This document shows, one piece after another, positions 3,264 through 32,997 of a DNA stretch of 37,347 nucleotides. This DNA is from a virus. Lineage: Duplodnaviria > Caudoviricetes. A model generated the notes under the pieces. It worked only from the letters and a program-made list of their open reading frames with translations. It had not been told where the DNA came from and searched no databases. The stretch is from positions 1-37,347 of the IMG/VR virus record IMGVR_UViG_3300037502_001141; one strand, 5' to 3'. A program made the position numbers and the translations under genes. The stretch's first letter is position 1. Every line of letters starts with the position of its first letter.

Positions 3264-3959
3264 TTAGTCTTGGTCTGTCTCGTGCAGCTCCTGATCTGCG
3301 CCGGTCATGTAGTCAAAGTCTGCTGCGCCTGACAGAACATCGAGGGCTGCCTCGAGGGCTGCCTCATCTGTACACTTGTTGGCTGCCTCTCTTACTTGGC
3401 TGCGTAATGCCTTCAAGGCCTCCATCCGCTCTTTAGTCTCTTCGCTGGTCTTCTCTTTGAGTACTGTCTCGAGATCCTTTACTGCCTTCTTCAGATCCCT
3501 GTTGGTCGGGTTCTTGGCGAGGGCTGAGTACTTCGACTCGATCTGCTGCCGTACTTGGTCGGGGCTGCTGTTGGCGTGCGCTGCCAAGAGGTCTGCCTTC
3601 TTCTGCGCCCGTTCTGCTGCTCGCTGCTGGGACAATGGATTCTCGGATTCGGGTTTGATGATCTCGATCTCGAACATGTCTTCGAGATCTCCCTTGAATC
3701 GAGACCAAGCTTTATCGACCGCTGCGCTAGTCTTGCCGGGGTTTGCGCCCATCCAGCCTTCTTTCCAATCAAGCTGCGCGGTCTCGAATTGCAGCCGGGT
3801 TACCTTGTCCCCTAACATCCGGGCATAGTTAGTTAGGGTCTCAACAGCTAGGCTGTCTTTGCGTGCCCAAGCTGCGCCAGCGTTCTTGGCTGCTGCGTGC
3901 TGCTCAGGCGATAGCGCGTCGATGGCTGCTGCGACTGTGGTCATCTGTGGTGCGTTCAT
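3264..3959 (-). CDS. Hypothetical helical protein, paralog of 4161..4790
   Basis: 231 aa; RBS ACCAAGAGGAG upstream; own terminator; colinear similarity to the neighbouring ORF. Confidence 0.85.
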   Translation of the reverse strand: MNAPQMTTVAAAIDALSPEQHAAAKNAGAAWARKDSLAVETLTNYARMLGDKVTRLQFETAQLDWKEGWMGANPGKTSAAVDKAWSRFKGDLEDMFEIEIIKPESENPLSQQRAAERAQKKADLLAAHANSSPDQVRQQIESKYSALAKNPTNRDLKKAVKDLETVLKEKTSEETKERMEALKALRSQVREAANKCTDEAALEAALDVLSGAADFDYMTGADQELHETDQD

Positions 3960-3996
3960 CTGTACTTCTCCTCTTGGTTATGGCCGGGATGGCCGG

Positions 3997-4160: not shown

Positions 4161-4790
4161 TTACTGGGTCACAAAACTAACTTCGTTGTCCTGACTGAGC
4201 ATCTCAACCACTAGGTCTAGCCTCGTGATGTCGGAGCACTCTCTGACCGCTTTAATGACCTCGTCACGCTTTGCCTTTAACTCGGCTTTGGATTCGGCCT
4301 CGGTGTCTTTGGTACGAGCCTTCAAAACCGTTTTTAGTTCTTTCAGGATCGCGTCACTTCCCAACGGGTTTTTAGCCTGACGCTCGTATGCCTGACTGAC
4401 TAGTTGATGCAATTGGTCGGTGCTCGTGTCCTCGTAGCGTTTGATCGTGTCGGCTAGTTTGGTTGCGCGTTCCTCGGCTTTCTTAGTCGCGGCTTTGCTA
4501 GTTGCCTTCGGGATTGGTATTCCATAGGTATCTACCAAACGGGTCTTAAATCTTCCGAATGCTTTATACGCGGCGTCACCCTTTGCCTTTGGCTTAACCT
4601 CGGTGTATCCGTTTATCCAAGATAGTCGCTCGGTTTCCCATACCTGATAAGTCGGCTCGGTTCCTACGGCCTCTGCGAACAATTGAAAAGACTCTGACGC
4701 ATTGACCTCTGACTGAGCAAATAACCTACCGGCATCAATTGACCGCGTTGGGTTTAGTGCTTGTGCTACAACTGTTTTTTCGTTTTGCAT
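4161..4790 (-). CDS. Hypothetical helical protein, paralog of 3264..3959
   Basis: 209 aa; RBS ACCAACGAGGA upstream; own promoter and terminator. Confidence 0.85.
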   Translation of the reverse strand: MQNEKTVVAQALNPTRSIDAGRLFAQSEVNASESFQLFAEAVGTEPTYQVWETERLSWINGYTEVKPKAKGDAAYKAFGRFKTRLVDTYGIPIPKATSKAATKKAEERATKLADTIKRYEDTSTDQLHQLVSQAYERQAKNPLGSDAILKELKTVLKARTKDTEAESKAELKAKRDEVIKAVRECSDITRLDLVVEMLSQDNEVSFVTQ

Positions 4791-4812
4791 AATTTCCTCG
4801 TTGGTTAGTTAG

Positions 4813-5308: not shown

Positions 5309-5337
5309 TTGACTTTGTAAACTACCTATGCTATAAT
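5309..5337 (+). promoter_or_regulatory. Strong sigma70 promoter of the early operon
   Basis: TTGACT-17 nt-TATAAT with TGn extension. Confidence 0.9.
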
Positions 5338-5439: not shown

Positions 5440-5472
5440 GTAATTACTAACCAACCAAGAGGACTTACTACT

Positions 5473-5805
5473 ATGCGTACCGACACCAAAACCGATCAAC
5501 TTATCAGCCTGTACAACCAAGGCATGATCTACAACCTGCGCAACCTGCCCGAAGGTGAGCATCATGTATTCGTCAACCCCCGCCTGACCCTGCGCCACAA
5601 AGATGCCAAGGACTTCAAGTCCCAACCCTTTTTCATCCGCGCCACACAGACGATGTTTGCTACCAACACCACACCAATCGACGCCATCGAGCAAGCCCTC
5701 TATCAGCACCCCCTGCTCGTGTACTACACACTCGGCAAGCGCAGGTTCCACTACAACACCTTGCTTGCCTCAGCACTTCAAACCGGCAATGTATTTGTCG
5801 TATAA
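5473..5805 (+). CDS. Hypothetical protein (110 aa), first early gene
   Basis: Start reassigned to ATG 5473 after ACCAAGAGGA (5454-5463); MRTDTKTDQLISLYNQG... Confidence 0.75.
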   Translation: MRTDTKTDQLISLYNQGMIYNLRNLPEGEHHVFVNPRLTLRHKDAKDFKSQPFFIRATQTMFATNTTPIDAIEQALYQHPLLVYYTLGKRRFHYNTLLASALQTGNVFVV

Positions 5806-8116: not shown

Positions 8117-8150
8117 GCAATCAAATCATTTAAATCAAGAGGAAATTATT

Positions 8151-9212
8151 ATGGAAATTCGTATGACATCAGAAGTATCTCTAGCAGAAGCCGAAGAATC
8201 TATCATTGCTTTTGGTAACGAGAATGCGGTGCATTTGGTAGGTGAGCCTGGAGTTGGTAAGACCGCGATGTTCGAGCGTATCGTAGAGCGCACCGGCTAC
8301 AAGGGTGTGTACATGGATGTGCCGAATCTAGAGTTGGGCGAGATCGGCATACCGATGCCGAACCATGAGACTAAGACAACGAGCCTGTATCCCAACGACG
8401 CGTGGGGGTTCCACAAGTCTGAGCCTATGGTGATCTTCTTAGACGAGTTTACTAAACCATCTAGCCAAGCGGTGCAGAATACTTTGCATCCTTTGCTCAA
8501 CGAGAGGCGGATCGCTAACTTCAAACTGCATCCCGATACCATCGTGATAACGGCGGGTAACAACTCAAGCGACGGGGTGGGCGATAACCTGAAAGCACAC
8601 TCACTAAACCGCATTACTGTGATGCCGGTGCGCAAGCCGACTGCAGAGGAATGGTTGGAGTGGGGTAGTCAGGGTGGGATTGCTCCCGAGATGTTGGCGT
8701 GGGTCAAGGCTTATCCGCATGCTATGGCATCCTACCTAGATCCATCACAGGCTGACAATCCATACATCTTCAATCCTAAGTTCCCGAAACGGTCATTCTT
8801 CTCGCCACGCTCAGGGCATCGTGCGTCAAACATCATCAAGAAACGCGACAAGATTTCCAAGAACGCATTGATTGTTGGCTTGGTTGGCACGATTGGTGAA
8901 TCTGCAGCAAGGGATCTAACCGCGTATGTTGATGTTGCTGATAGTCTACCAACATGGGAACAAGTGATGAACGATCCTGCCAATGCACAAGTGCCGACTT
9001 CTCCTGCTGCCCTATGCATCATGGCTTACGGCGCAATTCAACGGGTTGACCGAGCCAACATCAGCAAGTGGTTTACTTACTTGAAGCGCACGCCGACTGA
9101 GTTGCAGAGTGTGTTCTGCTTGTCTGCTACTAAACACAACGAGAAGAAGCAAGTGCTTATGACGAGTGGCGCATTTGTCGATTGGATGCGTGAGCATCAG
9201 TACTTGTTCTAA
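8151..9212 (+). CDS. AAA+ ATPase (MoxR/dynein-related type)
   Basis: Walker A GEPGVGKT, Walker B IFLDE, sensor TAGN, arginine finger LNR, SPR; start at ATG 8151 after ATCAAGAGGA. Confidence 0.9.
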   Translation: MEIRMTSEVSLAEAEESIIAFGNENAVHLVGEPGVGKTAMFERIVERTGYKGVYMDVPNLELGEIGIPMPNHETKTTSLYPNDAWGFHKSEPMVIFLDEFTKPSSQAVQNTLHPLLNERRIANFKLHPDTIVITAGNNSSDGVGDNLKAHSLNRITVMPVRKPTAEEWLEWGSQGGIAPEMLAWVKAYPHAMASYLDPSQADNPYIFNPKFPKRSFFSPRSGHRASNIIKKRDKISKNALIVGLVGTIGESAARDLTAYVDVADSLPTWEQVMNDPANAQVPTSPAALCIMAYGAIQRVDRANISKWFTYLKRTPTELQSVFCLSATKHNEKKQVLMTSGAFVDWMREHQYLF

Positions 9213-9578: not shown

Positions 9579-10836
9579 ACTAACTGCAGAGCAACGCATT
9601 GAGCGCACTCATGTGCAATTGATGCGGGAGAAAAACTTCTGCCTATTCTCAGGCGTGTTTATGATTGGCAAGGTAACCATCTCTGACAAGGTGGCTACTG
9701 CGCGCACAGATGGGCGCAATGTCGAGTATGGTCGTGCATTTGTGGATAGGATAAACGACAAACAGTTGGCTTTCCTAGTAACCCACGAAGCCATGCACAA
9801 AGCATATCGGCACATGATGGTTTGGAAGAACCTTGCCAAAGAGAACGCACGCTTGGCAAACATGGCGATGGACTATGTGATTAACTTACAGATCCAAGAC
9901 TATGACCCACAACGCATTACAGTCGAGATGCCTCAAGACGAGTTGGGTAATCCTCTTGGTCTTATCGACGAGAAGTATCGTGGTATGGATACCATGCAAG
10001 TCTACCAAATGCTTAAGAAAGAATGTGGTGATGGTAAAGGTAGAGGTGATGGTAAAGGTAGAGGTGATGGTAAAGGTAAAGGTGGTGGACAACCTGACAA
10101 TTCGTCAGATGGTCAAGGTGGTGACTCCCAAGAGTTTGACGAGCATGATTGGGAAGGCGCATCTGATATGTCTGAAGAAGAAGAGCAAGAACTTGGTAAA
10201 GAGATTGACCATGCCTTGCGTGAGGGTGCGATCCTCGCCGGTAAGATGAAAGGCAATGTGCCAAGAGGTATCGAAGAACTACTGCATCCCAAGGTAGATT
10301 GGAAAGAAGCCCTGCGTGATTTTGTAAAAGCGCATACCAAAGGCTTGGATGAATCGACATGGCGCAGACCAAATCGTAGGTATCTTGGTGTAGACATCAT
10401 CATGCCATCAACGATTGGGTTCAAAGCCGAGCGCATATCTATCGGGACTGACACATCGGGTTCGATTGGTGGAGAGATCCTTGGTAGGTTTCTAGGCGAA
10501 GCAAAACTTATCTGCGACGATGTTGAGCCTGAGATCATCGACATGATGTATTGGGACACTCATGTGGCACGACACGAGATCTATGCGGGTTCGGAAGTCA
10601 GCAACTTTGTCAACTCAACTAAACCTGCGGGGGGTGGTGGAACAGACCCAGACTGTGTTCCCCGTTTCCTATTAAAGAAGGGAATCAAACCACAATGCAT
10701 CGTGATGTTGACTGACGGGGTGTTCTTTGGTCACGAGACTACGAAGTGGGAAGAACTTGGTGTGCCTGTGTTGTGGTGTGTAGTAGGCAACAATGAGTTT
10801 AAGCCCAAGGTCGGGCAAGCCGTTTGTGTTGAATAA
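9571..10836 (+). CDS. HExxH metallopeptidase-like plus vWA domain protein (DUF2201-like)
   Basis: ARTDG, THEAMH, NMAMDYVIN; Gly/acidic linker; MIDAS DTSGS, GGGGT, MLTDG. Confidence 0.9.
   Translation: MAKLTAEQRIERTHVQLMREKNFCLFSGVFMIGKVTISDKVATARTDGRNVEYGRAFVDRINDKQLAFLVTHEAMHKAYRHMMVWKNLAKENARLANMAMDYVINLQIQDYDPQRITVEMPQDELGNPLGLIDEKYRGMDTMQVYQMLKKECGDGKGRGDGKGRGDGKGKGGGQPDNSSDGQGGDSQEFDEHDWEGASDMSEEEEQELGKEIDHALREGAILAGKMKGNVPRGIEELLHPKVDWKEALRDFVKAHTKGLDESTWRRPNRRYLGVDIIMPSTIGFKAERISIGTDTSGSIGGEILGRFLGEAKLICDDVEPEIIDMMYWDTHVARHEIYAGSEVSNFVNSTKPAGGGGTDPDCVPRFLLKKGIKPQCIVMLTDGVFFGHETTKWEELGVPVLWCVVGNNEFKPKVGQAVCVE
10027..10080 (+). repeat. 3 x 18-bp in-frame tandem repeat (GDGKGR)
   Basis: GGTGATGGTAAAGGTAGA x2 plus GGTGATGGTAAAGGTAAA. 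Confidence 0.95.
10088..10114. promoter_or_regulatory. 27-bp palindromic motif, site F (intragenic)
   Basis: GAC-AAC-CTGAC-AATTC-GTCAG-ATG-GTC. Confidence 0.75.
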
Positions 10837-12890: not shown

Positions 12891-12944
12891 TGCGTTAAGT
12901 ATCTCCGAAGTGAGATAAGGATCTAATACCAAGAGGATATAGTT

Positions 12945-16283: not shown

Positions 16284-16447
16284 CAGCTAAGAAAACCCCC
16301 AAAGTTGAAGAGGTTACTTTCCCTCTAAATGATGTACCGTATGAAATGCGTAAATTAGCGTGGCCCTTTAAGACTTCAAAGGAGCATGAATTAATTCTTA
16401 AGTGGGCTAGAAAACAAACCAAGATAAGGAGAATTGTGTTTCCATGA
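16280..16447 (+). CDS. Hypothetical protein (55 aa, WPFKT motif)
   Basis: MTAKKTPKVEEVTFPLNDVPYEMRKLAWPFKTSKEHELILKWARKQTKIRRIVFP; ATGA overlaps at both ends. Confidence 0.7.
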   Translation: MTAKKTPKVEEVTFPLNDVPYEMRKLAWPFKTSKEHELILKWARKQTKIRRIVFP

Positions 16448-18371: not shown

Positions 18372-19908
18372 CCGGATACTGCTAGTTAAGACTAAGTTTC
18401 CTAGCCGTATTACAGAAACAATCAAGAAGAGCAAAGTAGTACAAAAAGAGGGGGAAGTTAGTGAGGTAGCCGTCAACTGGGGGCTATCTGAAGCCCAAGC
18501 TTTGCGTAAGTTACGGATTAAAAAAGTACCGTCCCCAATTCAGCGTGACTACGATTGGCCGGGGCTGCATAAGCCGATGGAACATCAAAGGGACACAGCA
18601 TCGTTCCTAACTTTACACAGACGGGCATTCTGTTTTAACGAGCAAGGCACAGGCAAAACGGCCTCTGCCATATGGGCTTCTGACTACCTGATGAACGCAA
18701 AGATCATTCGTCGGGTATTAGTTATCTGTCCCCTATCCATTATGCAATCCGCATGGCAAGCAGACTTGTTTAAGTTTGCAATTCATAGGCACGTAGACGT
18801 TGCTTATGGAGCCAAGCAAAAAAGAGCCGAGATCATCAATGGCGGGGCAGACTACGTCATTATTAATTTTGATGGGGTAGAAGTTGTAAAAGATGACATC
18901 AAAAATGGGAAGTTTGACCTAATTATTATTGACGAGGCAAACGCCTATAAGAGTTCTCGCACTCAGCGCTTTAAGGTAATGAAAGACATTATCCAACCGA
19001 CCACATGGCTATGGATGATGACCGGCACCCCTGCTGCGCAGTCCCCGCTTGATGCTTACGGACTTGTCAAACTTTGTGTACCCGAAAGAGCGCCGATGAC
19101 CTTGGGTGGGTTCAGAGATACTGTTATGTATCAACTGACTAGGTTCAAGTGGATACCGAAGCCGAAAGCAAACGAAGTCGTGCATGACCTGTTGCAGCCC
19201 GCCATTCGGTATACGAAAGAAGAATGCCTTGACTTGCCGGAAATGCTTTACACATCTCGGTATGTCCCCATGACCCCGCAGCAAGAGAAATACTACCGGC
19301 AGCTAAAGAAAGATATGCTTATTGCCGCTGCTGGAGAAGAGGTATCGGCTGTCAACGCCGCCTCAAGCCTGACTAAATTACTACAGATTTCAGGCGGTGC
19401 GGTCTACACCGACAACGGTAACGTAATTGAATTCGATGTATCAAACCGTCTCAAGGTAATTCAAGAAGTAGTTGAAGAAGCCTCACATAAGGTATTGATT
19501 TTCGTACCTTTTACTCACACTATTAATCTACTAAAAGACTACCTTACCAAACAAGGAATAGAGTCGGAAGTTATTAACGGCTCTGTAAGCGTCAATAAAC
19601 GTACAGACATCTTCAAGCGCTTTCAGGAAAACCCTAACCCCAAAGTTTTATTAATACAGCCACAAGCCGCTGCACATGGGGTAACATTAACTGCTGCAAA
19701 CGTTGTTATATGGTATGCCCCAGTGACATCTATTGAGACATACTTGCAGGCTAACTCGCGTGCACACAGGCAAGGGCAAAAGAATCCTGTAACTGTGGTG
19801 CATATTGAAGGCAGTCCCGTAGAAACAAAGTTGTATGCAATGCTGCAAAGCAAATTAGATTTCCACACTAAGATAATTGATTTGTACAAAAAAGAATTAG
19901 ATACTTGA
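18355..19908 (+). CDS. SNF2-family helicase
   Basis: EQGTGKT, VICP, IIDEAN, MTGTP, HGVTLT, QANSRAHRQGQ. Confidence 0.95.
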   Translation: MQIINDRILLVKTKFPSRITETIKKSKVVQKEGEVSEVAVNWGLSEAQALRKLRIKKVPSPIQRDYDWPGLHKPMEHQRDTASFLTLHRRAFCFNEQGTGKTASAIWASDYLMNAKIIRRVLVICPLSIMQSAWQADLFKFAIHRHVDVAYGAKQKRAEIINGGADYVIINFDGVEVVKDDIKNGKFDLIIIDEANAYKSSRTQRFKVMKDIIQPTTWLWMMTGTPAAQSPLDAYGLVKLCVPERAPMTLGGFRDTVMYQLTRFKWIPKPKANEVVHDLLQPAIRYTKEECLDLPEMLYTSRYVPMTPQQEKYYRQLKKDMLIAAAGEEVSAVNAASSLTKLLQISGGAVYTDNGNVIEFDVSNRLKVIQEVVEEASHKVLIFVPFTHTINLLKDYLTKQGIESEVINGSVSVNKRTDIFKRFQENPNPKVLLIQPQAAAHGVTLTAANVVIWYAPVTSIETYLQANSRAHRQGQKNPVTVVHIEGSPVETKLYAMLQSKLDFHTKIIDLYKKELDT

Positions 19909-19932
19909 CAAAGTACAGTTTTTAGATATAAT
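19905..19932 (+). promoter_or_regulatory. Consensus sigma70 promoter
   Basis: TTGACA-16 nt-TATAAT. Confidence 0.85.
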
Positions 19933-19958
19933 AGTAAAAAACAACCAAGAGGACATAT

Positions 19959-21473: not shown

Positions 21474-24353
21474 ATGGCTACAACAGACCTATTGTCGGCG
21501 GTGCTATCCACAGAGGGGTGGTACTGCATTGTCGGCTTAAAGAAAAAAGGTCTGCCCAAACAGGTTTTTGTACAGACGCTGGTAGAAGCAGATCAAGAAA
21601 TACAATCCCTTTTAAGCAAGCACTATGATGTCTATTTTGCCTGCTCGAAGTACGAAAAGCCTTCCACACGGACAGCGGATAACGTAAAAAATATTAAGTC
21701 GTTTTGGCTTGATATCGATTGCGGAGAAGGAAAACCCTATGCAGATCAGGCTGACGGGGCTTTAGCCCTACTCAACTTTTGCAAAGCATTAGGGCTTCCT
21801 AAGCCGACTATTGTTAATTCAGGGCGTGGGCTTCATGTCTACTGGCCTCTGATATCGGCTGTCCCTCGGCTTGATTGGAAGCGTGTAGCAGAAAAACTAA
21901 AGAAGCTTTGCGTCGATTACAACCTCGAAGCCGACCCTGCTCGTACATCAGATGCAGCATCTATCTTAAGAATACCGGAGACCTTAAACTATAAACCTGA
22001 TCCCCCTGCGCAAGTCCAACTACAGCACCTCTCTCAACCAGTAGACTTTGAAGCGTTTAAAACTTTATTGGGTGTATCCGACACAGACGGAGAAGCGCCT
22101 GACTATGCTACTAGCAATTTAAATGAACTAACCAAAGCCTTGATGGGCAACCGGCAGTCTCGGTTTCAAACCATTTGGCTAAAGACTCAGAACAGCGAGG
22201 GGTGTGCTCAGATAAAGTATGCGATGGATAACCAAGAAAACTTGGAGGAACCGCTTTGGCGTGGTGCATTATCGATTGCAGCATACTGTGTAGATAGTGA
22301 TACAGCCGTACACGAGATATCTAAAGGGCATCCAAACTACTCTGAGCAAGAGACTGAAAACAAAGTTAAGTTAATTAAAGGCCCATATACTTGCGAAGTA
22401 TTTAACAAAAACAACCCCAACATCTGTGATAAGTGCCCACACTGGGGTCAGATCAAATCACCCATCGTGCTTGGTGCCGAAATTGCTGAAGCCGCACCGG
22501 AAGATAATGTTGTCCAAGTTACCCCACCGGCTGCGTTTATGCCGGTTACATACACTATTCCTGAGTATCCGTTTCCATTTTTTAGAGGTAAAAACGGCGG
22601 AGTTTATTCTCGCCCCGCCGAAGATGGCGAAGAGCCAGACTTAATTTATGAGCATGACCTGTATGTAGTAAAGCGTATGCGTGACCCCGAGTACGGCGAA
22701 ATGGTTTGGATGAGGCTGCACACACCAAAAGATGGAGTCAAAGAATTTGCATTGGCAGCTATGGACTTACTTGCAAAAGAGAAACTGCGGGACAAGCTTG
22801 CTTATCAAGGAATCGTTGCCATGACTAAGCAGATGGAAGCGATTATGTTCTATGTTGTGCGGTTTACTAAGGAGTTGCAGTTTAAACACGAGGCAGAAAT
22901 TATGAGAACGCAGTTTGGTTGGACAGATAAATATAAATCTTTTGTAGTAGGCGACACAGAAATTTGCGCCGACGCCGACAGGTATAGCCCACCGTCTAGT
23001 TACACTAAAGAATTAGCGCCGTGGTTTGAGCCACAAGGCACGCTAGAAGAGTGGCAGTCTGTTATTAATGTTTACAACAACCCCGGCTTTGAGCCTATGG
23101 CATTTGGCTTCTTTACGGCTTTCGGTGCCCCTCTTATGAAACTGCTGAACCTCAAGGGGGCCATCATTAATTTAATTAACAACGAGTCCGGTACAGGTAA
23201 GACCACGACGCTGAAGGCTATGCATAGTGTGTACGGCCACCCCGAGGAGTTAATGCTGATTCAGAGAGACACTATGAACGTCAGGCTGCACCGTCTTGGG
23301 GTTATGAATAACCTCGGCTTAGGCTGTGACGAAATTACCAAGATGACTGCAGATGACTTTTCCGACTGGGCATACGCTGTGTCTCAAGGCCGAGGTCGCG
23401 GTCGGATGAGGGCTAGTGCTAATGAAGAGCGTAAAAACTTTGCTCGTTGGGAGACTATCCTCTTATGCTCATCAAACGCATCGGTGGTGGATAAATTGAA
23501 ATCCTTGACTAAGTCGGCAGACGGAGAGTTAATGCGGGTTATCGAGTATGAAATCCCGTCAGTTAAGCTGCTGAGCAAGGAAGAAGCGGATGAAATTTAT
23601 CCTAAGTTGTATACAAACTATGGTCACGCGGGGCGTATATACCTGCGCGACTTGGTTTCTAACTTGGAAGAACGGCTTGAAGAAGTTCGTCAAATCCAAA
23701 AGATCATTGATAAAAAGGTTGGATTCACAAACCGTGAACGTTTTTGGTCAGGTGTTGCTGCTTGCAATATTGCTGGGGCTTTATTTGCTAGGCGTTTGGG
23801 GCTTTTTGATATTGATGTTGGCAGAGTGTTCAAGTGGATGCTCACCCATTTTGGGGAAATGAAAGAGGAAATTAAGCCGCCCCTTACAAGCCAAGCCAGT
23901 GTTATTGGCGAGTTTTGGAATATGCACCGCAACAATACGCTGGTTATCAATGGCGAGGTTGACAAGCGTACCGGGGTAGAAATGTTGCCGATTCTAGAGC
24001 CACGCGGGGAGTTGATGATCCGCATGGAACCGGACACCATGAAGTTGTTTATTACGGCTACCGCACTGCGGAAATACTGTACTGAGCACCGGATCACGCT
24101 AAAGGATGTCCTGACCTCCCTGACCGCCGAGGGCGTCTATGGGGGCGCTACGAAGAAACGGATGTCCAAAGGCACTAAATTAAGCGCTGTGCCGCCCGTA
24201 GATGTGTACGTCTTTGACTGCTCTAGGGGCGATTTCCTTGACCCAGACGTCTTTATTGCTGCCGCCCAGCACGGCTTAGACGACCCCGATGCGGCTCAGG
24301 AAGAGGTTCAGGAGGAGGCTCCGGCGGAGGAAACACCGAAAGATGCAGGTTAA
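21474..24353 (+). CDS. Primase-helicase fusion (AEP-type primase, Cys-rich domain, DUF927-like P-loop region)
   Basis: WLDID, NSGRGLHVYW, ILRIP; PYTC...CDKCPH; QFGW, SGTGKTT, CDE, GRGRGR. Confidence 0.85.
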   Translation: MATTDLLSAVLSTEGWYCIVGLKKKGLPKQVFVQTLVEADQEIQSLLSKHYDVYFACSKYEKPSTRTADNVKNIKSFWLDIDCGEGKPYADQADGALALLNFCKALGLPKPTIVNSGRGLHVYWPLISAVPRLDWKRVAEKLKKLCVDYNLEADPARTSDAASILRIPETLNYKPDPPAQVQLQHLSQPVDFEAFKTLLGVSDTDGEAPDYATSNLNELTKALMGNRQSRFQTIWLKTQNSEGCAQIKYAMDNQENLEEPLWRGALSIAAYCVDSDTAVHEISKGHPNYSEQETENKVKLIKGPYTCEVFNKNNPNICDKCPHWGQIKSPIVLGAEIAEAAPEDNVVQVTPPAAFMPVTYTIPEYPFPFFRGKNGGVYSRPAEDGEEPDLIYEHDLYVVKRMRDPEYGEMVWMRLHTPKDGVKEFALAAMDLLAKEKLRDKLAYQGIVAMTKQMEAIMFYVVRFTKELQFKHEAEIMRTQFGWTDKYKSFVVGDTEICADADRYSPPSSYTKELAPWFEPQGTLEEWQSVINVYNNPGFEPMAFGFFTAFGAPLMKLLNLKGAIINLINNESGTGKTTTLKAMHSVYGHPEELMLIQRDTMNVRLHRLGVMNNLGLGCDEITKMTADDFSDWAYAVSQGRGRGRMRASANEERKNFARWETILLCSSNASVVDKLKSLTKSADGELMRVIEYEIPSVKLLSKEEADEIYPKLYTNYGHAGRIYLRDLVSNLEERLEEVRQIQKIIDKKVGFTNRERFWSGVAACNIAGALFARRLGLFDIDVGRVFKWMLTHFGEMKEEIKPPLTSQASVIGEFWNMHRNNTLVINGEVDKRTGVEMLPILEPRGELMIRMEPDTMKLFITATALRKYCTEHRITLKDVLTSLTAEGVYGGATKKRMSKGTKLSAVPPVDVYVFDCSRGDFLDPDVFIAAAQHGLDDPDAAQEEVQEEAPAEETPKDAG

Positions 24354-24540
24354 TGGGGTCAACTACGAGGTCGATTGGACTAAGTTTAAGGTAGGCAGAT
24401 CCTTCTTTGTACCCTGCCTAGACGTAGAAGAAGCCCGAGCCGTTGTAAAAAACACTATGGACAGACTGGGATTTGAGGTCAAAGTAAAGTTAGTGGTGGA
24501 GGACGGGTTCCGTGGCTTGCGTATTTGGAGAGTTGGGTAG
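24343..24540 (+). CDS. Small phage protein (65 aa)
   Basis: MQVNGVNYEVDWTKFKVGRSFFVPC...GLRIWRVG; GGAGG upstream. Confidence 0.7.
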   Translation: MQVNGVNYEVDWTKFKVGRSFFVPCLDVEEARAVVKNTMDRLGFEVKVKLVVEDGFRGLRIWRVG

Positions 24541-24546
24541 TAAACT
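24517..24546 (+). promoter_or_regulatory. Possible sigma70 promoter for the sRNA candidate
   Basis: TTGCGT-18 nt-TAAACT; predicted start about 24552, at the base of hairpin 1. Confidence 0.5.
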
Positions 24547-24551
24547 TCGAC

Positions 24552-24647
24552 CTGACAGTGCCTCCTCGCTGTCGGTGCCTATGGCACTCCTCTTGGTGGT
24601 TGAACTCCTTCAACCTTGCACCCCCGCCCAGCGCGGGGGTCTTTTTT
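24552..24647 (+). ncRNA. Candidate multi-hairpin sRNA with three anti-Shine-Dalgarno CUCCU motifs
   Basis: Hairpins at 24552-24575, 24575-24587, 24598-24615 and terminator 24620-24647; CCUCCUC, CUCCUCUUGGU and CUCC lie in loops or linker. Confidence 0.65.
24620..24647 (+). terminator. Intrinsic terminator at the strand convergence
   Basis: ACCCCCGC-CCAGC-GCGGGGGT-C-TTTTTT. Confidence 0.9.
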
Positions 24648-27600
24648 ACTCTCTACCGTATTCCAACATTGGGGAAACCCGTGGGCGTAGTTTCTTCTGA
24701 ATCTGCGCACCAAATACTTCGGCTTCCATTTGGTTCTGTCCCCGACGTTTGAAGGAGTCAATTACATCTTTTGGTTCGACTGCGTATTCTGGGTACTTTT
24801 GGTTAAACTTTTGAATGTTTTCAATGGTGTCTGCGTAGGCATCGGTATTGCCGCGCTCCATCCATAGTCTGTTCATTAGAGTATTACGTTTGTCAATTAC
24901 CTTTTGCTCGTAGGTCTTAGCCTCAATGGCTGCTTTCTGTTTTTGGGCAAGGCGTTCAGGCTGCAGTCCAACTGCTTGTATTGCAAGTTCCCAAGCCGAG
25001 AAGTTATCTACTAGCGTAATGCCAGACTTAGTTTTAGCCCCCTCATCAGCCATACGATATGCAGCGGCTGGTTTAGCCACAATTGCCGGAGCGGCTTTCT
25101 CAAATGCACGCTGATACTGCCCCTGCTCCATCAACTCAATAGCCTCAGCCCAATTTACCCCTAACCCAACCACAGGGCCAGCGTTGGCAATTACACTTTC
25201 CACCACATTCTCTCGGGTATCGGTGGAGAACCGAGGGTCACGCAACCATAAATTTACGGGGTCAAGGCTGACACGCTCACTTAGTGAGCCACCAGTTGCA
25301 ACTGAAGCCGGGCCACGGACAACTGCCTCCATAGTTCCACGGCCAGCCTTACGGGCAGTCTCTTCGCCCATACCCATCTTCTTGTATATGTCGGCTACAT
25401 AACCACCAAGTTCGACTTCCATGTAGTTCTTAAACCAGTTATCCCAGTCAAAGAACTCATCGTCATCATCATTAGCCGCTAATTTAACTATGTTACCAAT
25501 TAACAAAGTAAAAAACGGTAAAGCCTCTGCACCGCCAAGCAAGAATGTCACACCTAAAATACCAGCCAACCGACGACGCCCTTCTTTGTAAGTCTCTCGG
25601 CGCTGAGCATCGGCTTCGGCAATCCGCTGGTCTATGATGTTCTGCGGAATCTTGTCTTCGATCATCTGCCGCCGAAACTCTTTTATCTCAGCTTTACGGA
25701 ATGGGGCGGCAAGAGTAAAGTAAAAGTTACGGGCTACGACGTAAGTAGCTAACACAGAGTATTGTTTAAATTTAGTCAACACCGAAAGCAGCGGAGGCGT
25801 AAAGTACCGTGGCTTCATCTGACGAGTAAAGTCACCCAAAGACAGGCCAGCAATATCTTTAGCTTCCGTAATTGCTAACTCAAAGGCTTCGTCTGGTGTA
25901 TTTGGTATTGGGTTACCTGCATTATCACGCTGGATAACGCCACGTAAATTTTTCTTAGGTTCATTTAAGAACTTGTCGTAGGCTAACTCAAACACAGACA
26001 GTAGCGTTACTTCGCGGTTTAGCCTTTCAGACTGATGAAACAATGCAGCAATAGTCCGTTTTACTGTGTTGTACCGCCCTGTATAAAGCTCTGATGGTCG
26101 ACCACCAATGTCCATAATGTCATTGGTCTGCGAGATATTGATATCGTTATCTTCAATAAATCGGTCTGCCGCTCGTTGCATCAATGGGTCTAAGTTGCCG
26201 CCTTCTACAATCGACGGGAACTCCATCTGCATAATTTGTCCTTTAAACGCCGGACTAATTGTACGTTTCGGCATTGTGGCTGTGTACCGACCAAGATTTT
26301 TAAGCATTACAGCATTTGCTTTAGCATATCCATATCGGCCACCAATATAAGGCATTGTGATCGCAGCCATACCTAAAAGGTTTAGCATAGCCGAGAACGG
26401 CGCAGACAGCATAAAATAAAACGTAGCATCTGATAGTTTGCCTGCTACTACCGCAGACATGCTGGTATCTTCGTTGCTTAGAATTGTCGGCGTGCGCTTC
26501 TCTACTTCCTTGATGTAATCGTCGTAGACATCCGAGTTAGGTAAATTTTTGACGTATTCCTTGGCATTAATTAAGTTATTAATAAATCTTTCTGAATATT
26601 TAAACCGCGACTGTTGATAAGCAGTATGTACAGCCGTAGTAGCAAAAACACGGATCATATCTTCACTAGCACCTTGAATTGACTGCCGGTTGATAAACAT
26701 TTTCCGAACACTTTGCTGGGGGAGCAAAATATAAATTAACTGATTAAGACTTTCTTTAAGTTCTTTCTTTGTATTTTCTACAGCAAATACTTTTTCTACT
26801 TCTTCTTGGGTTGGGATTTGGCCCATTTGTTTAGTTAGAGCTTTTTCAATTTCTTGATACTCTTTTTGAGTAGGTTTAGTTATGGCGCCTACAGAGTCTA
26901 TAATATCTTGAACGTCTTTAAGAACTTGAGTCGAACTAGCATTTTGATTGTATAGCTCTGAGATGCCGTTACCTTTGCGCATGGTTTCGGCTAAGTTTTG
27001 CTGCTGTGCGTTGCCATTTGATAGCTGTCTTTTACGCTTACGAAACGCTAACTCTCTACCCAATACAGTTTCAAACTCATAGAACTCTTTAAAGTTGCCT
27101 TTGCCGACTTGGAACCAATAGTTACCAAAACGACGTAGGGGGAAGTAAGGTGCGACTAACTTATCACGACCAAACTTATCATTGATTTCTTTAATAACCT
27201 TTTGACGCTCGGCTTTGGGCAACTGCAACGCACGCTTCTTCATCTCCGAAACCATTGTATTAATGGAGTCGGCGTAAAAATCTCTTACACGGCGATAAAT
27301 AGTTTTAAACTCAGGATTTAGTCCATCCCAAGCTGCTTGCATCGCTGGGTTTAAAGAACCTGCTTGTGCTGTATCTGGATCAATCCCTCGGATAGTAGAC
27401 TCCAACATAATTCGACCCATGAGCCGAGACTGCTTCGGATAACGTGCTTGCAAGCGAGTCCATTCGGCCAAGATGTCTTTAGCCTTGGTCATTGTGCGGT
27501 TCCGATCAGCAATCATCTGCTCAATAATTCGGATAGCACCGCTAATCTGAGGGAATTTGGTTTTAGTTAAGTCATCAATTTGACGTAAGTTAGCAAAGCC

Positions 27601-30600
27601 GAGAATAGACCGACGGAATATAGTATTGCCTGCATCCCACATTGGCGCAAGAATATCAGAACGTAATTTATCCCATGTTTCGTGCCCTTTAATAGCACTT
27701 TCAATTTCACCAACAAGTTTTACTGCGACTTGTTCTGCAGAACGCCATGTTGTTGAAATTGGCCCCTGAATACGTTTACCTTTTGGGGCGAATCGAGCAC
27801 CTGCTGCTGTAGGAGTACGGGTGCGCACTGCCGAGAACAACTGTGTGGCCGTAGCCATAGCGTTGCTAGCAAGGTTATCTATGCCGACCATTTGGTAAAT
27901 TGCACGGACTAGGCGTGTAAAGAACGGCATCTTAACCGGTTTGTACATTATCTTTCTAAGCCGGTCTTGAAATGACTTATTAGTAAAGACCTCAGACACA
28001 AACTCGTGGATATCAGTTAGACCATACAAGTCCAACGGAATATTAGCGACTGCATACTTATACATCTTTTGGAGTTCTTCACGAGCAGCACGCTGCCCTT
28101 CCGTAAGCGTAGTAACGTCGGCGTTAAGAATAGCCTCAGTAGCCGCGTGCAGCACTTCGTGCAAGAAAACGTCGTTTGTAGAGTTATCAAGGTCTATCGT
28201 AATAGCATCAAATGCCGGGTAGTAAGCACCGGCAACCTCCAACCCACGGATGTTGTCTTCAAAGGCTTTGTTAACATCGGTAAATTCTGCAATTACCGGC
28301 TGCATGTTATAGCGAGGAGAGCGTAGTTCTTTTATACCTCTATAGACTTTTTCAAGGTTTTCATCCCGGTCATAGTTTTCAAAATATTTGTTATACAAAT
28401 CCGGGTAGGTAAGCTGAACGTAATTAAACATTCGCTTCTGTTGATGATGTGTTTTTAAGTCAATCTGGCGACGGGTTAAGTCTCGAGCGCTGTTGAAGCT
28501 AATCGTAGTTGGTAGGTCTAACGCTGCTAGTTTTGCGGCTAGTTCTTTGTATAGCGGATTAGTAAGCCGAGTTGAAAGCACTTCGAGAGCACGCTTTAAA
28601 TTGCCTTTGGCTATCTCATCGGCAACTGCAGGGGCAATATTTCGGGGCTTAGCAAGTCGATTTATTACTTGGTCTTCGATGCTTCCCGGCGTAGTTTGCC
28701 CAGAAAATCTGGCACGCTCGCGCTCTTCTGCAAGATCTGCAAGGCTGCGTTCAGTTCCTCCAGATACTCCGAGTTCGCCTGTTGCTGTTCCCCCAAATCT
28801 CTCCACGCTGTCAGCACGGCGTTCATCTCGTTTTTCGTAGGAGCCAGAGTCTTGGAAGCGCTTTCCACGAGGTTTAGCGTTTGCATTTTTATTTACCTCT
28901 CGAATAAATTCAAAAATATCTTTGTTATCGCGGTAAGTTTTAAACAACCGCTGACGAATATCGTTTAGAGTGGTATCGCCTGTAAGAGCTTCACCTTCCA
29001 TTAGATACAAAATTCGCTGCATTTCAGCAGGGAAATCGGCGTTGTGGCTACGCACTTTATGGTGGGCTAACTCATGCACCATCGTACCTAAGATACCTGC
29101 TGCAGCAAATCGTGGTTCAGCGGATTCAGTTACAGCCGGGTTTACATACGAGCCGCTAAAAGGCAATCGAATGCTTACGCCTCGATATTCTGTGTCAAAA
29201 CTTATGCCGATAGCTTCGTTGCGAAGCTCGTTATATCCCGTAAGATCAACGACATAAGATCTAAGTTTTTGGAACTCATCACCAATTTCATATATAAACT
29301 TATCAAAACGCTGACCAAACTTGTTTCGGGCCATTTCAACTAAAGATGAGCCTTTAACATTTTCTATTTTGCGTTCAACTTCGGCTCTCTTAGATTTCCA
29401 TTCAGCATCGGTAAGTTTATTAGCGTACCAATCCTCCCGAATGTCATTTAATTCGCTTTTAAGTTCTTTAACTTTTTCTTGATCTGGAATTTCTACGTTG
29501 TCATGCAACATGACACGTTTAGCATCAACGTTGGCTTGATCAATCTTAAATTCGTCAAGGTTAATTCTAGAATTCTTAAGATCATCTTGAGACAGTTCAG
29601 GGATAACCCGGCCTTTAACAATTAAGCGGCCTTCTTTAACCTCAATGACATCGCCTTCAGAAATGTCAGAAGCAACTTTTACAATGCCAGCATCGCCTTT
29701 AGGCGCAAGTTCTTCTGGTGCAGTTGCTTTAATAGTCCCTCTGTCGTCATACAGATACTGTATTGACCCAAAGTTTTTAGCATCATTTCCTAAATCGACA
29801 GCCCCATAAACTAAGTTTAAATAACTAGTTAACTGTTCAAACCCTTTTTCCGTCGTTGGCGAAAACCGTTGCCGGTTTAAATCAAATGGATAATTAAAAT
29901 CTTCTGGTTTTACGTTTTTATTAGGAGATACGTCAAGATAAAAATTTCTAGGTACTGTTTTAGAATCAAAGCCCGCACCTACTGCAATCCTCCCGTCAAA
30001 CTGCCACAACCCATTAGATAGTATGTGTAAGTTATCACTAGGTACATACCGTTGAGGGCTTTTTTCAACATAAATTCTTGCAGTACCCCAATCAAACTTA
30101 ACATCAGCAAATTGGGTATAGCTATCGTATGGAAATTCATTACCTATGCGCACAGTACTATTGTTGAATGTAACAGAAATATCCGCAAACAACGGACTTT
30201 TTGTTAAAACTTCATAATCAAATTGGCTATCAGGGATTTTAATTTGCTTAGTCTCCCCTGTATCTGAATCTATATAAGACTCAGGTACGCCTACTTCAGC
30301 ATAAGTACCATGCCCATCTGGGAAAAGTTCAAGATATTGGAGGGGGATGTCATTACCTTTATACACCCGAATGTCTGGCTGCATGGATGGGTCATCCATT
30401 GCATCTTCTAGTTCAACCCCAGTGCTTTCTAAAACACTTAGCACATCATCACGCAGAGTAACAACTTTTATGCGTTTGTTACCAAACAAAAATTGCATTT
30501 TGGCAATACCAAGACCACCAGAAGCCCGGGTGCTTTCTTTTTCCGTCCCTGCAACAGTTAGAAATGTAGTTGACAAAGTCTTAGGAGACATGCCAGTTCC

Positions 30601-32997
30601 ATTATCTAATACTGAAATGATACGAGTAGCTGAATCTACATTTATATTAATAGCGCCTTCTTTAAGCTGCCCTTTTTCCTGCAGTGTTTTAATGGCATCA
30701 AATGAATTTTGAACCATTTCTTTAACCGACACAGTCGGCATTTTGTCAGGATTACCATACAACTTTTGCCCAAAAAGTTTATTCATGCGGCGTTTGTTGT
30801 AGTCTGGTTTAGCCTTGATGGTTTCCCCAGACGGGCGTAAGTCAGCGGGCTTTGAAGTAGCCGCTAGTTCATCAAGTAGGGCTTCGCCTTCAGGCGACAA
30901 TGAGTTATTTGATAGGGCTAGACCAGAATCTCTGAGTGCCTTTAAGGCTTGAAACTTAACCGCACCGACCTTGCCAGCACGAAGTTTGGTAGCTGCATCT
31001 AAAAACTGTGCGTCATTCATTCCTCTTGGCAACGCAGTCGGTGCCGCTTTCGGTATATCTTTGCCTTTAAAACCAGCCCGAATCTCATCTTCAATCTGCT
31101 TAATTTTGTCAGCACGCTGCTCCATTGGTACCGCAGCAATTTCAGATTGACGAGCGGCTACGCCTTTGTTTACGGCTAATTGTTCATTTAGTTTGTTAAC
31201 CCGTGCTTGTACGGTGGGGTCTTCAACAGCGGCTAAAGCATCCGCAATAATCTTGTCTACCGAGTCGATCTCCCCTTGAACTTGCTTTAGGGCCGAATCT
31301 ACCTTGGCTTGAGAACCTCGTTTGTTACCCGCAGTTAAATCTTTAGATGCGTTAACAAGCCGCGCCGCCGAACCAGCAGCGGAAGGATAATTAAGCAACG
31401 CACCTAGAGGGGTTGGTAATTGAACCCCTAACCCCATCATGTCTTCACCAGACGGAATGTTTAGTCGTGTAGCGACGTCGGCGTAGGCATCTTTTGCTTT
31501 TTGTATTGACGCATCAAGAGAATTTAATGACTGCGTTACCGGATTTGCCGGATCTGTCATTAAGGCGTTGTAGTGAATGTTTGCCTGTTTTTGCTGCGGG
31601 CTTACTGTGTCACTTGGTTGAAATAAGGTTTCTAATGCACTTGGCTTAGCCGTTGCTCCAACTCCAACCCCACCAGCAGGAACCCCAAAAACTTCCACTC
31701 CTCCGGCTCCAGTTTCAGTAGGCTGCTCGGTAACTCCTGCTCCGACACCTGTTTCGTCAGGTACCTGAAGGCTAGGCTCAATTCTTCCGGCGGCATCCGC
31801 TGTAGCAACTCTTCCTTCCAGTTCTCGTTCTCCATAAGCTTTCACCAATTGGTCGAGTTCTTCATCAGTGGCATCACGCCCGTACATCTGTTTAAAACCA
31901 GTAGCAAATGCTGCTTTGATTTCGGGAGTAACTGCTTCAGGTTCTGCAGGCTCTTCAAGCTTTGCGTCTAACCCGGCAATAAGTCGTTCTTCAGGGGTTT
32001 GTAGCCCAGCAAATTTTTCCGCACCTTTTTGCATGGCTTTACCAACAATAACATTACCGCCAGTGCCAACAACAGTTGCAATAAAAGTTTGCGCTGCAGC
32101 AGAAGGGCGGTCTGCTAAATAACTAGAGAACGGTTTTTCAGGGTTTAATACAGCCCATTCGTTTAAGTCTTGCAGTATGGTCGCAAGTTGCTCTCCGGGT
32201 ATTTCTTTCTTTAACTGATTAAGCAGCATCCGACCAAAGCCGGTCTTTTGGTTAATGTCATTGAGCAAACTGCCAAGAGGCATCTTTTCAGTAGCAACTT
32301 CAATAACACCTTGAGATGCGGCAAAGGGTAACGCTTGCTCAGGTCTTAAACCTTTTTCTCTAGCCTCTTGATATGCCTGACCACCAGTAAGCCCACCGAA
32401 CGCCGTAAGCACAGCAGCCTGACCACCGGGAAGCATTGCAGCGGGCAATAAGGCTAGGTTTTGCCCAAAACTTTCAAGGCCGGATTCGACACCACTAAGT
32501 ATTAGTCCTTGGTCGGCAGGAGGTTTTATCTTCCTAGCCTCTGACTCACGAGCCTGCTTTGCCATAAATTCAGCGGCTTGAGCAGCAGGGTCTTTTTCTC
32601 CAATAGTGCCAGTAAGCGCCTGATAAAACCTACCCTGTGGGGTCTTTTGGTATACATCACTTGCTTGTTCAGATAATGCACGGAACGCCCCAGCCGCCCC
32701 AATGTTCATGCTTTCGGGGACATTTTTAACCACGCGCCCTAAAAAGTCAGTGATCGAGTTTGTTGATGTAGTGGGGGAAGGCGCAACTTCTTCAGGAGTA
32801 GCCGGGGCTACCGGTGCTTCTTCTACCTTTGGCGCAGGCGCAGTCGGCGCAGCGGGGGCAACACCCAGTCCGATACGCCCTGCAAAATCCTCAAACGGTA
32901 AATCAGAGTAAAACTTTTTGTGAAATCCTATTGCTAAGTCTTGGTCTGATAAGTCATTGTATTGAGGATATTGTTTGCGAAGTTCTTGAATATTCAT
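24646..32997 (-). CDS. Giant internal virion/ejection protein of polyvalent type (GHKL ATPase, two HExxH domains, PLxRFG domain)
   Basis: 2783 aa; EMVQNSFDA (~aa 760), DNGTGM, GGLGIA; HELAHH (~1308); HEVLH...EFVSE (~1613); YFPLRRFG (~1953); last gene of the structural operon. Confidence 0.85.
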   Translation of the reverse strand: MNIQELRKQYPQYNDLSDQDLAIGFHKKFYSDLPFEDFAGRIGLGVAPAAPTAPAPKVEEAPVAPATPEEVAPSPTTSTNSITDFLGRVVKNVPESMNIGAAGAFRALSEQASDVYQKTPQGRFYQALTGTIGEKDPAAQAAEFMAKQARESEARKIKPPADQGLILSGVESGLESFGQNLALLPAAMLPGGQAAVLTAFGGLTGGQAYQEAREKGLRPEQALPFAASQGVIEVATEKMPLGSLLNDINQKTGFGRMLLNQLKKEIPGEQLATILQDLNEWAVLNPEKPFSSYLADRPSAAAQTFIATVVGTGGNVIVGKAMQKGAEKFAGLQTPEERLIAGLDAKLEEPAEPEAVTPEIKAAFATGFKQMYGRDATDEELDQLVKAYGERELEGRVATADAAGRIEPSLQVPDETGVGAGVTEQPTETGAGGVEVFGVPAGGVGVGATAKPSALETLFQPSDTVSPQQKQANIHYNALMTDPANPVTQSLNSLDASIQKAKDAYADVATRLNIPSGEDMMGLGVQLPTPLGALLNYPSAAGSAARLVNASKDLTAGNKRGSQAKVDSALKQVQGEIDSVDKIIADALAAVEDPTVQARVNKLNEQLAVNKGVAARQSEIAAVPMEQRADKIKQIEDEIRAGFKGKDIPKAAPTALPRGMNDAQFLDAATKLRAGKVGAVKFQALKALRDSGLALSNNSLSPEGEALLDELAATSKPADLRPSGETIKAKPDYNKRRMNKLFGQKLYGNPDKMPTVSVKEMVQNSFDAIKTLQEKGQLKEGAININVDSATRIISVLDNGTGMSPKTLSTTFLTVAGTEKESTRASGGLGIAKMQFLFGNKRIKVVTLRDDVLSVLESTGVELEDAMDDPSMQPDIRVYKGNDIPLQYLELFPDGHGTYAEVGVPESYIDSDTGETKQIKIPDSQFDYEVLTKSPLFADISVTFNNSTVRIGNEFPYDSYTQFADVKFDWGTARIYVEKSPQRYVPSDNLHILSNGLWQFDGRIAVGAGFDSKTVPRNFYLDVSPNKNVKPEDFNYPFDLNRQRFSPTTEKGFEQLTSYLNLVYGAVDLGNDAKNFGSIQYLYDDRGTIKATAPEELAPKGDAGIVKVASDISEGDVIEVKEGRLIVKGRVIPELSQDDLKNSRINLDEFKIDQANVDAKRVMLHDNVEIPDQEKVKELKSELNDIREDWYANKLTDAEWKSKRAEVERKIENVKGSSLVEMARNKFGQRFDKFIYEIGDEFQKLRSYVVDLTGYNELRNEAIGISFDTEYRGVSIRLPFSGSYVNPAVTESAEPRFAAAGILGTMVHELAHHKVRSHNADFPAEMQRILYLMEGEALTGDTTLNDIRQRLFKTYRDNKDIFEFIREVNKNANAKPRGKRFQDSGSYEKRDERRADSVERFGGTATGELGVSGGTERSLADLAEERERARFSGQTTPGSIEDQVINRLAKPRNIAPAVADEIAKGNLKRALEVLSTRLTNPLYKELAAKLAALDLPTTISFNSARDLTRRQIDLKTHHQQKRMFNYVQLTYPDLYNKYFENYDRDENLEKVYRGIKELRSPRYNMQPVIAEFTDVNKAFEDNIRGLEVAGAYYPAFDAITIDLDNSTNDVFLHEVLHAATEAILNADVTTLTEGQRAAREELQKMYKYAVANIPLDLYGLTDIHEFVSEVFTNKSFQDRLRKIMYKPVKMPFFTRLVRAIYQMVGIDNLASNAMATATQLFSAVRTRTPTAAGARFAPKGKRIQGPISTTWRSAEQVAVKLVGEIESAIKGHETWDKLRSDILAPMWDAGNTIFRRSILGFANLRQIDDLTKTKFPQISGAIRIIEQMIADRNRTMTKAKDILAEWTRLQARYPKQSRLMGRIMLESTIRGIDPDTAQAGSLNPAMQAAWDGLNPEFKTIYRRVRDFYADSINTMVSEMKKRALQLPKAERQKVIKEINDKFGRDKLVAPYFPLRRFGNYWFQVGKGNFKEFYEFETVLGRELAFRKRKRQLSNGNAQQQNLAETMRKGNGISELYNQNASSTQVLKDVQDIIDSVGAITKPTQKEYQEIEKALTKQMGQIPTQEEVEKVFAVENTKKELKESLNQLIYILLPQQSVRKMFINRQSIQGASEDMIRVFATTAVHTAYQQSRFKYSERFINNLINAKEYVKNLPNSDVYDDYIKEVEKRTPTILSNEDTSMSAVVAGKLSDATFYFMLSAPFSAMLNLLGMAAITMPYIGGRYGYAKANAVMLKNLGRYTATMPKRTISPAFKGQIMQMEFPSIVEGGNLDPLMQRAADRFIEDNDINISQTNDIMDIGGRPSELYTGRYNTVKRTIAALFHQSERLNREVTLLSVFELAYDKFLNEPKKNLRGVIQRDNAGNPIPNTPDEAFELAITEAKDIAGLSLGDFTRQMKPRYFTPPLLSVLTKFKQYSVLATYVVARNFYFTLAAPFRKAEIKEFRRQMIEDKIPQNIIDQRIAEADAQRRETYKEGRRRLAGILGVTFLLGGAEALPFFTLLIGNIVKLAANDDDDEFFDWDNWFKNYMEVELGGYVADIYKKMGMGEETARKAGRGTMEAVVRGPASVATGGSLSERVSLDPVNLWLRDPRFSTDTRENVVESVIANAGPVVGLGVNWAEAIELMEQGQYQRAFEKAAPAIVAKPAAAYRMADEGAKTKSGITLVDNFSAWELAIQAVGLQPERLAQKQKAAIEAKTYEQKVIDKRNTLMNRLWMERGNTDAYADTIENIQKFNQKYPEYAVEPKDVIDSFKRRGQNQMEAEVFGAQIQKKLRPRVSPMLEYGRE
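28665..28886 (-). CDS. Nested +1-frame ORF (73 aa) inside the giant gene
   Basis: AGAGGT-AAATAAAA-ATG; amphipathic helical sequence; main frame is linker-like here. Confidence 0.55.
   Translation of the reverse strand: MQTLNLVESASKTLAPTKNEMNAVLTAWRDLGEQQQANSEYLEELNAALQILQKSASVPDFLGKLRREASKTK
31632..31835 (-). CDS. Nested +1-frame ORF (67 aa) inside the giant gene
   Basis: GGTG-AAAGCTT-ATG; helical Leu/Glu-rich sequence; main frame is a G/V/T/A-rich linker here. Confidence 0.45.
   Translation of the reverse strand: MENENWKEELLQRMPPEELSLAFRYLTKQVSEQELPSSLLKLEPEEWKFLGFLLVGLELEQRLSQVH

Follow-up and report, generated by a model that had tools for sequence, protein, structure and literature searches.

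The DNA analyzed here (the window) is the whole of a 37,347-nt virus record of an uncultured tailed phage, estimated as 59% complete. The replication arm occupies the + strand. It begins with small early genes, a MoxR-like ATPase, a vWA/metallopeptidase, a VRR-NUC nuclease, and a DNA polymerase, and continues with an exonuclease, a helicase, a 129-aa DUF7307-like protein, a 288-aa protein, an HTH protein, a primase, and a 65-aa gene. The 129-aa gene heads an SSB-like/HTH/primase operon. The virion arm converges on the replication arm. The nearest relatives of the terminase are in Pelagibacter phage HTVC027P, phage 023Pt_psg01, and DSL-LC04 (56%); that of the primase is in Pseudomonas phage Rollin (31%). 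A host search by genome-contig scan gave a single weak, irrelevant match. Integrated lysogeny is disfavored because neither a tyrosine nor a serine recombinase was found in any of 24 records, including the six that are at least 90% complete.

The two arms meet at a gap of 105 bp (24541–24645), occupied by a predicted small RNA (sRNA) unit (Table 1). A structured gap of about this size had been described in the original prediction, with hairpin 1 (CUGACAG/CUGUCGG), hairpin 2 (GUGCC/GGCAC), hairpin 3 (GGUUGAA/UUCAACC, loop CUCC), and a U-tailed terminator, and all of these are present where it placed them. Hairpins 1 and 2 share G24575, however, and the first base of the seed is paired within hairpin 2, which corrects the earlier description. 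A role for the CUCC loop of hairpin 3 is not upheld, since that loop varies among the 11 aligned relatives. The loop of hairpin 1 is a possible, unproven second seed, and the 5′ arm of hairpin 3 may extend the pairing with targets. The window element folds with z = −2.5 against 200 shuffles, and the predicted cost of opening the seed is 1.5–2.6 kcal/mol. The assembled contigs of three RNA-labeled runs (libraries that may hold DNA) end at 24494–24511, shortly ahead of the predicted promoter, and none covers the element; an assembled contig from a further run, of unspecified kind, spans it.

Table 1. Features of the predicted sRNA unit, its neighbors, and its predicted targets (window coordinates, except in the last row)
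Feature	Position	Strand	Remarks
65-aa gene, last of the replication arm, carrying the predicted sRNA promoter	24343..24540	+	
Predicted −35 box, in Leu-Arg codons of the 65-aa gene	24517..24522	+	Comparative codon evidence
Predicted −10 box	24541..24546	+	TAnnnT in 21/25 types
Predicted small RNA, ~96 nt (start placed from the −10 box)	24552..24647	+	
Hairpin 1, CU-rich loop a partial seed repeat	24552..24575	+	Stem invariant in 11 relatives, without compensatory change
Hairpin 2, dispensable	24575..24587	+	Deleted in L009 and L227; loop variable
Predicted seed, 11 nt, mostly single-stranded linker	24587..24597	+	Invariant in 11/11 aligned relatives
Hairpin 3, loop not conserved	24598..24615	+	
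Intrinsic terminator, polarized to the + strand	24620..24647	+	Minus-side U-tail in 1/26 types
2783-aa putative virion protein, converging; stop overlaps the terminator U-tail	24646..32997	−	
Main predicted target: RBS of the 129-aa gene	19944..19953	+	Covariation z 8.8/9.4, 25 types
Predicted target: RBS of the VRR-NUC nuclease gene (12945)	12928..12937	+	z 3.8/4.9, 11 types
Predicted target: RBS of the MoxR-like ATPase gene (8151), one G-U	8134..8143	+	z 3.5/3.9, 10 types
Predicted target: RBS of a 110-aa ORF (5473–5805)	5454..5463	+	11/12 promoter (5309–5337) ahead
Predicted target: RBS of the 231-aa gene, 11/11	3968..3978	−	
Predicted target: RBS of the 209-aa gene, one bulge	4795..4805	−	Promoter 4875–4848
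Possible further target: leader of the 69-aa DUF3310 gene, bulged pairing	16418..16431	+	Rank 6/38 (window only)
int-alpA motif, in relative loci	L102:1657-1727, L055:3682-3748, L071:1467-1533, L114:3521-3587, L099:1578-1645	all +	Rfam

The seed is complementary to ribosome-binding sites (RBSs) of the phage itself. The pairing claimed at the outset was confirmed: 11 of 11 nt upstream of the 231-aa gene (3968–3978, − strand), 10 of 10 at 5454, 12928, and 19944, one G-U at 8134, and one bulge at 4795–4805. When phage 5′ regions are ranked by a custom accessibility-corrected script (not IntaRNA), the best seven of 38 start regions all use the seed; they belong to the 231-aa, 110-aa, 129-aa, VRR-NUC, ATPase, 69-aa, and 209-aa genes, and virion genes rank low. 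A strong σ70-like site lies within 200 nt of three of the seven, against a base rate of 0.07 per 200 nt, and the RBS of the 129-aa gene lies 26 nt behind a 12/12 σ70 promoter (19905–19932). A match of loop 1 to the 209-aa gene had also been claimed. The 6-nt match exists, but the hexamer occurs 11 times in the window and the main seed also explains this target. The window alone is weak evidence because a second copy of the 10-nt seed lies within coding sequence (9951–9960) and scores as high as the element in a scan across the genome (14,910 windows).

The 231-aa and 209-aa genes (window 3264–3959 and 4161–4790, − strand) are paralogues (33% identity in record G006) with a similar leader ahead of each. 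A spaced palindrome, CTGAC-N5-GTCAG, is found six times in the early region (window 4820, 5419, 6109, 8096, 11628, and ~12812); several of the copies lie in leaders of predicted sRNA targets and look operator-like. Other lineages repeat different palindromes, with up to 14 copies. The idea that hairpin 1 is the operator of each lineage was rejected as a general rule, the half-site being common only to the sub-lineage of the window and one other type.

The 65-aa protein served as query in two scans, which returned 118 loci. Of these, 21 distant loci that lack the anchor motif and six with <150 nt downstream were left out; together with the window, 92 remain. The junction unit (promoter, 5′ hairpin, CU-rich seed stretch, and terminator) is present in 79 of the 92 and absent in 13, and the units fall into 26 sequence types without a common 13-mer. 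At 20 more distant loci, there is no gap whatever at the junction. The predicted RNA is thus dispensable. In a primase tree (FastTree, 51 rows), the element-less loci fall among the element-bearing ones, in about five lineages, a pattern suggestive of repeated loss. A terminator without the rest of the unit is found at the junctions of L074, L095, and the cultured phage RHph_TM3_14A. Pattern matches of the window type number 49 (22 distinct, in viral and metagenome contigs), all behind the 65-aa gene; loops 2 and 3 vary among the 11 aligned loci of the type, and no compensatory stem change occurs in 25 pairs of this type. By estimate, the anchor gene matches ~1600 IMG/VR stretches. Among 50,697 cultured phages, no DNA match to the junction or to the 65-aa gene was observed; the junctions of the primase relatives Rollin and RHph_TM3_14A carry no unit, and five cultured relatives (partial genomes), scanned window by window, gave no comparable unit. 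The window-type element is found in two separate primase lineages (the window vs. L058, L065, and L102/L106), which suggests ancestral retention or module exchange. One 84-kb contig kept in the counts (G027, with L073 and L146–L148) has apparently two capsid/replication modules and may be a chimera.

A lack of seed/target covariation had been named as what would refute the original prediction; across the 26 types, covariation is found. The sample was enlarged by 60 further regions of 40-odd contigs, with starts taken from a simple custom ORF caller. In a 26 × 26 matrix of own versus cross matches, 56 start regions have an exact complement of at least 9 nt to their own element, against 20.8 ± 5.6 expected, and none of 200,000 permutations is as high. 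Six of the 26 representatives lack an own 9-nt match and only four rank strictly first. Divided by genome arm, own matches number 57 versus 13.8 expected in the replication arm (561 genes, 26 types), 1 versus 2.1 in the virion arm (225 genes, 16 types), and 0 versus 1.9 for the minus-strand upstream genes (141 genes). The late arm was tested as a pool because late orthologues have fewer than five reliable starts each; for terL, the orthologue test covers six types (P 0.12).

Among single orthologues, the signal is highest for the 129-aa gene (z 8.8 by energy and 9.4 by run length, 25 types), followed by the VRR-NUC, ATPase, and helicase genes (z 3.1–4.9). Of the two measures, the two 288-aa genes pass one, and the polymerase and primase reach a marginal signal for one; the HTH, 65-aa, exonuclease, and HNH genes give no covariation signal. 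For the 129-aa gene, the own element is the best in 11–12 of 25 types. In 14 disjoint pairs of near relatives, chosen by eye from the tree, its own seed beats the swapped one in 12 by energy (p 0.006), with a score of 12-0-2 by run length. The matching reaches lineage-specific leader bases beyond the Shine–Dalgarno (SD) sequence, and two-part matches of seed and leader occur (11 + 10 nt in L115, 9 + 7 nt in L089). A stricter rule, in which the most repeated leader 9-mer of an element-bearing phage always matches its element, was rejected: The most repeated start-region 9-mer does so in only four of the 12 types that have such a repeat.

The promoter-like TTGCGT and TAAACT are present at the predicted place with an 18-nt spacer, and the comparison between types supports an independent promoter. 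The site scores 7/12 in the window and was not reported by the consensus scan. The Leu codon under the −35 box is TTG or TTA in 23 of 25 element types versus one of 13 element-less loci (p 0.003 at the level of lineages, the 13 loci representing about five). A TAnnnT hexamer 17–19 nt after the −35 box occurs in 21 of 25 element types versus one of the 13 loci, and the −10 hexamer keeps its distance from the −35 box when the stop codon of the 65-aa gene shifts. In the 26th type (L023–L025), the Leu codon is lost and a full promoter-like site is found in the gap instead. On this comparative evidence, the promoter codon in the 65-aa gene is under selection.

Eight element-less records were searched for a terminator-preceded complement of the 129-aa leader. 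One was found, in the complete genome of L095 (record G040), upstream of a small-terminase-like gene (L164 ~8350–8450, − strand). This relocated unit has a promoter-like site, hairpins, a terminator, and a duplicated seed, has 19 exact bases in common with the junction type L062, and pairs 12/12 with the RBS leader of its own 129-aa gene; at the L095 junction itself, only the terminator is kept. The other seven scanned records (mostly partial contigs) contain no substitute unit. The L095 copy cannot be the 3′ end of its target mRNA and, being on the opposite strand, points to action in trans. In the window, two of the targets are also on the strand opposite to the predicted sRNA. Judged from these sequences, the small-RNA unit is mobile and moves as a unit.

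AbcR1 and the cuckoo/CcsR RNAs carry anti-SD motifs in repeated hairpin loops and have many targets. Grouping the unit with these RNAs, which the earlier prediction cited as precedents, is not supported: The seed lies in a linker, there is only one CU-rich loop, loop 3 is variable, and there is no Rfam match. The start-associated sequences of mycobacteriophages offer a parallel. In an Rfam search of the window and nine relative loci, no sRNA-unit family reaches its cut-off. MmgR/SuhB (RF00519) matches the window over 24580–24654 with 29.8 bits (E 0.022), below the gathering cut-off of 41 bits, through the CU-rich linker and the terminator; no suhB match occurs in the nine relatives. The Betaproteobacteria toxic sRNA (RF02278) and anti-hemB (RF02837) do not match the window; in two of the nine loci, they score 24.0–27.3 bits versus cut-offs of 50 and 49.5. 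Their layout, a hairpin, an unpaired CU-rich anti-RBS stretch, and a terminator, is seen in most of the 26 predicted type folds.

The Burkholderia double-hairpin RNAs are predicted to cover the RBSs of many genes (PMC5688073); they are host-encoded with host targets, whereas the seeds of the phage unit change with its own phage leaders. The c4 RNA of P1/P7 is a phage RNA of similar size that acts in trans around the RBS of a phage mRNA, with sequence differences setting specificity (PMC12197685). Likewise, by computation only, the phage unit pairs in trans at phage-mRNA RBSs with a lineage-specific sequence. However, c4 controls the ant (antirepressor) mRNA in temperate phages, whereas the phage unit, carried by phages without a detected integrase, matches many operon-leading genes and its predicted targets are replication and early genes; unlike c4, it has its own terminator. 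Rfam C4 is not matched in the window (E up to 1) or in the nine loci (E up to 2). OppZ and CarZ of Vibrio cholerae are RNAs at operon 3′ ends that pair with the transcript of their own operon (PMC7398697). They are cut out by RNase E, whereas the phage unit has a selected promoter, is mobile, and matches other operons. The T4 endoribonuclease RegB inactivates early phage mRNAs at GGAG (PMC1702504); RegB is a protein nuclease, whereas the specificity of the phage unit would stem from RNA pairing. The predicted phage unit would work like c4 or the Burkholderia double-hairpin RNAs but belongs to neither.

The feature is probably a trans-acting phage sRNA regulating the phage's own early/replication regulon. 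The complementarity to early and replication RBSs, the core of the original prediction, is supported by seed/RBS covariation limited to the replication arm. The unit could instead be the 3′ end of the mRNA running from the 129-aa gene to the primase, pairing with the RBS at the 5′ end of the same transcript or excised as a feedback RNA like OppZ/CarZ. The best-conserved target does head the operon that ends at the terminator of the unit, the two-part matches to the 129-aa leader are long, and a precedent exists (PMC7398697); with a selected promoter inside the last gene, a separate gap promoter in L023–L025, a relocated opposite-strand copy in L095, and targets on other transcripts, this origin is unlikely, but the operon-3′-end and own-promoter modes can coexist. 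It is very unlikely that host mRNAs are the main target, as with the Burkholderia double-hairpin "toxic" RNAs, and that phage leaders match because their RBSs are of the host type. A host-aimed RNA should select against matches to phage genes, not for them. Virion genes, read by the same ribosomes, are without a match, and the matches extend to lineage-specific leader bases outside the SD, despite the generic anti-SD core within the seed, the same overall shape, and the sub-threshold Rfam scores to suhB, anti-hemB, and the Betaproteobacteria toxic sRNA.

The minus strand of the unit, downstream from the virion arm, reads as an RBS, and folding energy favors neither strand (13/26). A small gene with its own RBS on that strand, or a decoy for a protein binding the leader motif, is nevertheless highly improbable. 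The minus-strand ORF was rejected as a candidate, with a start codon after the SD in only seven of 26 types and no common frame or length; a minus-side U-tail is present in one type of the 26 and the promoter is on the + strand. Still another reading is that only the terminator matters, the remainder having arisen by chance or as an inverted, neutral duplicate of an early leader. Versions reduced to a terminator do exist (L074, the L095 junction, and the cultured RHph_TM3_14A) and a chance 10-mer occurs elsewhere in the window, but covariation over 26 types, an invariant seed beside variable loops, selection on the promoter, and relocation as a unit have already largely refuted this reading, and we regard it as extremely improbable.

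In the sRNA mechanism that we propose, the host σ70 polymerase would make a stable ~96-nt RNA from a promoter probably weaker than those of its targets (7/12 vs. 12/12 at the main target), and the RNA would build up with time and genome copies. The seed would cover the SD of operon-leading genes, foremost the 129-aa gene heading the SSB-like/HTH/primase operon, and often also the A-rich leader or the AUG. As in established sRNA biology, such pairing would block 30S binding. Early and replication protein synthesis would be capped, then wound down, and virion genes would escape. A threshold followed by a wind-down is favored because of this same difference in promoter score. The U-tail and the A-rich leaders make the use of Hfq plausible. 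Dormancy or superinfection control may be the purpose, with operator-like palindromes at several of the same promoters. A bolder version appears possible but doubtful: The seed would be a lineage-specific password that, with the palindromes, silences the whole early/replication programme of an integrase-less phage during a carrier or dormant state and excludes superinfecting kin with the same leaders, seeds and leaders diversifying against cross-silencing in the manner of a genome-wide P1/P7 c4 heteroimmunity.

Characterized phage sRNAs, as covered in a review, control a single gene in cis, an antirepressor, or host mRNAs. A catalogue of viral structured RNAs from IMG/VR exists (PMC10690425); six supplement files of that catalogue contain no seed match, with an unannotated listing possible in files 1, 2, and 4. 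A literature search, with most subscription papers outside its scope, returned no description of the phage sRNA family or of seed/RBS covariation in phages. If true, the sRNA reading would add a new level of control over the timing of phage genes: One RNA would define a regulon made up of the genes that lead the phage's own operons, and at least 26 seed types, from an abundant uncultured group of aquatic phages, would represent natural compensatory changes. The sRNA reading would explain the repeated extended RBS motif in such phages and let early regulons be read from sequence, and the sRNA/leader pairs would be a source of orthogonal pairs.

The HTH and primase genes are 2 nt apart in the window, and the Rfam int-alpA motif is absent there. 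In five of the nine relative loci scanned, that motif is found above cut-off between these two genes (Table 1).
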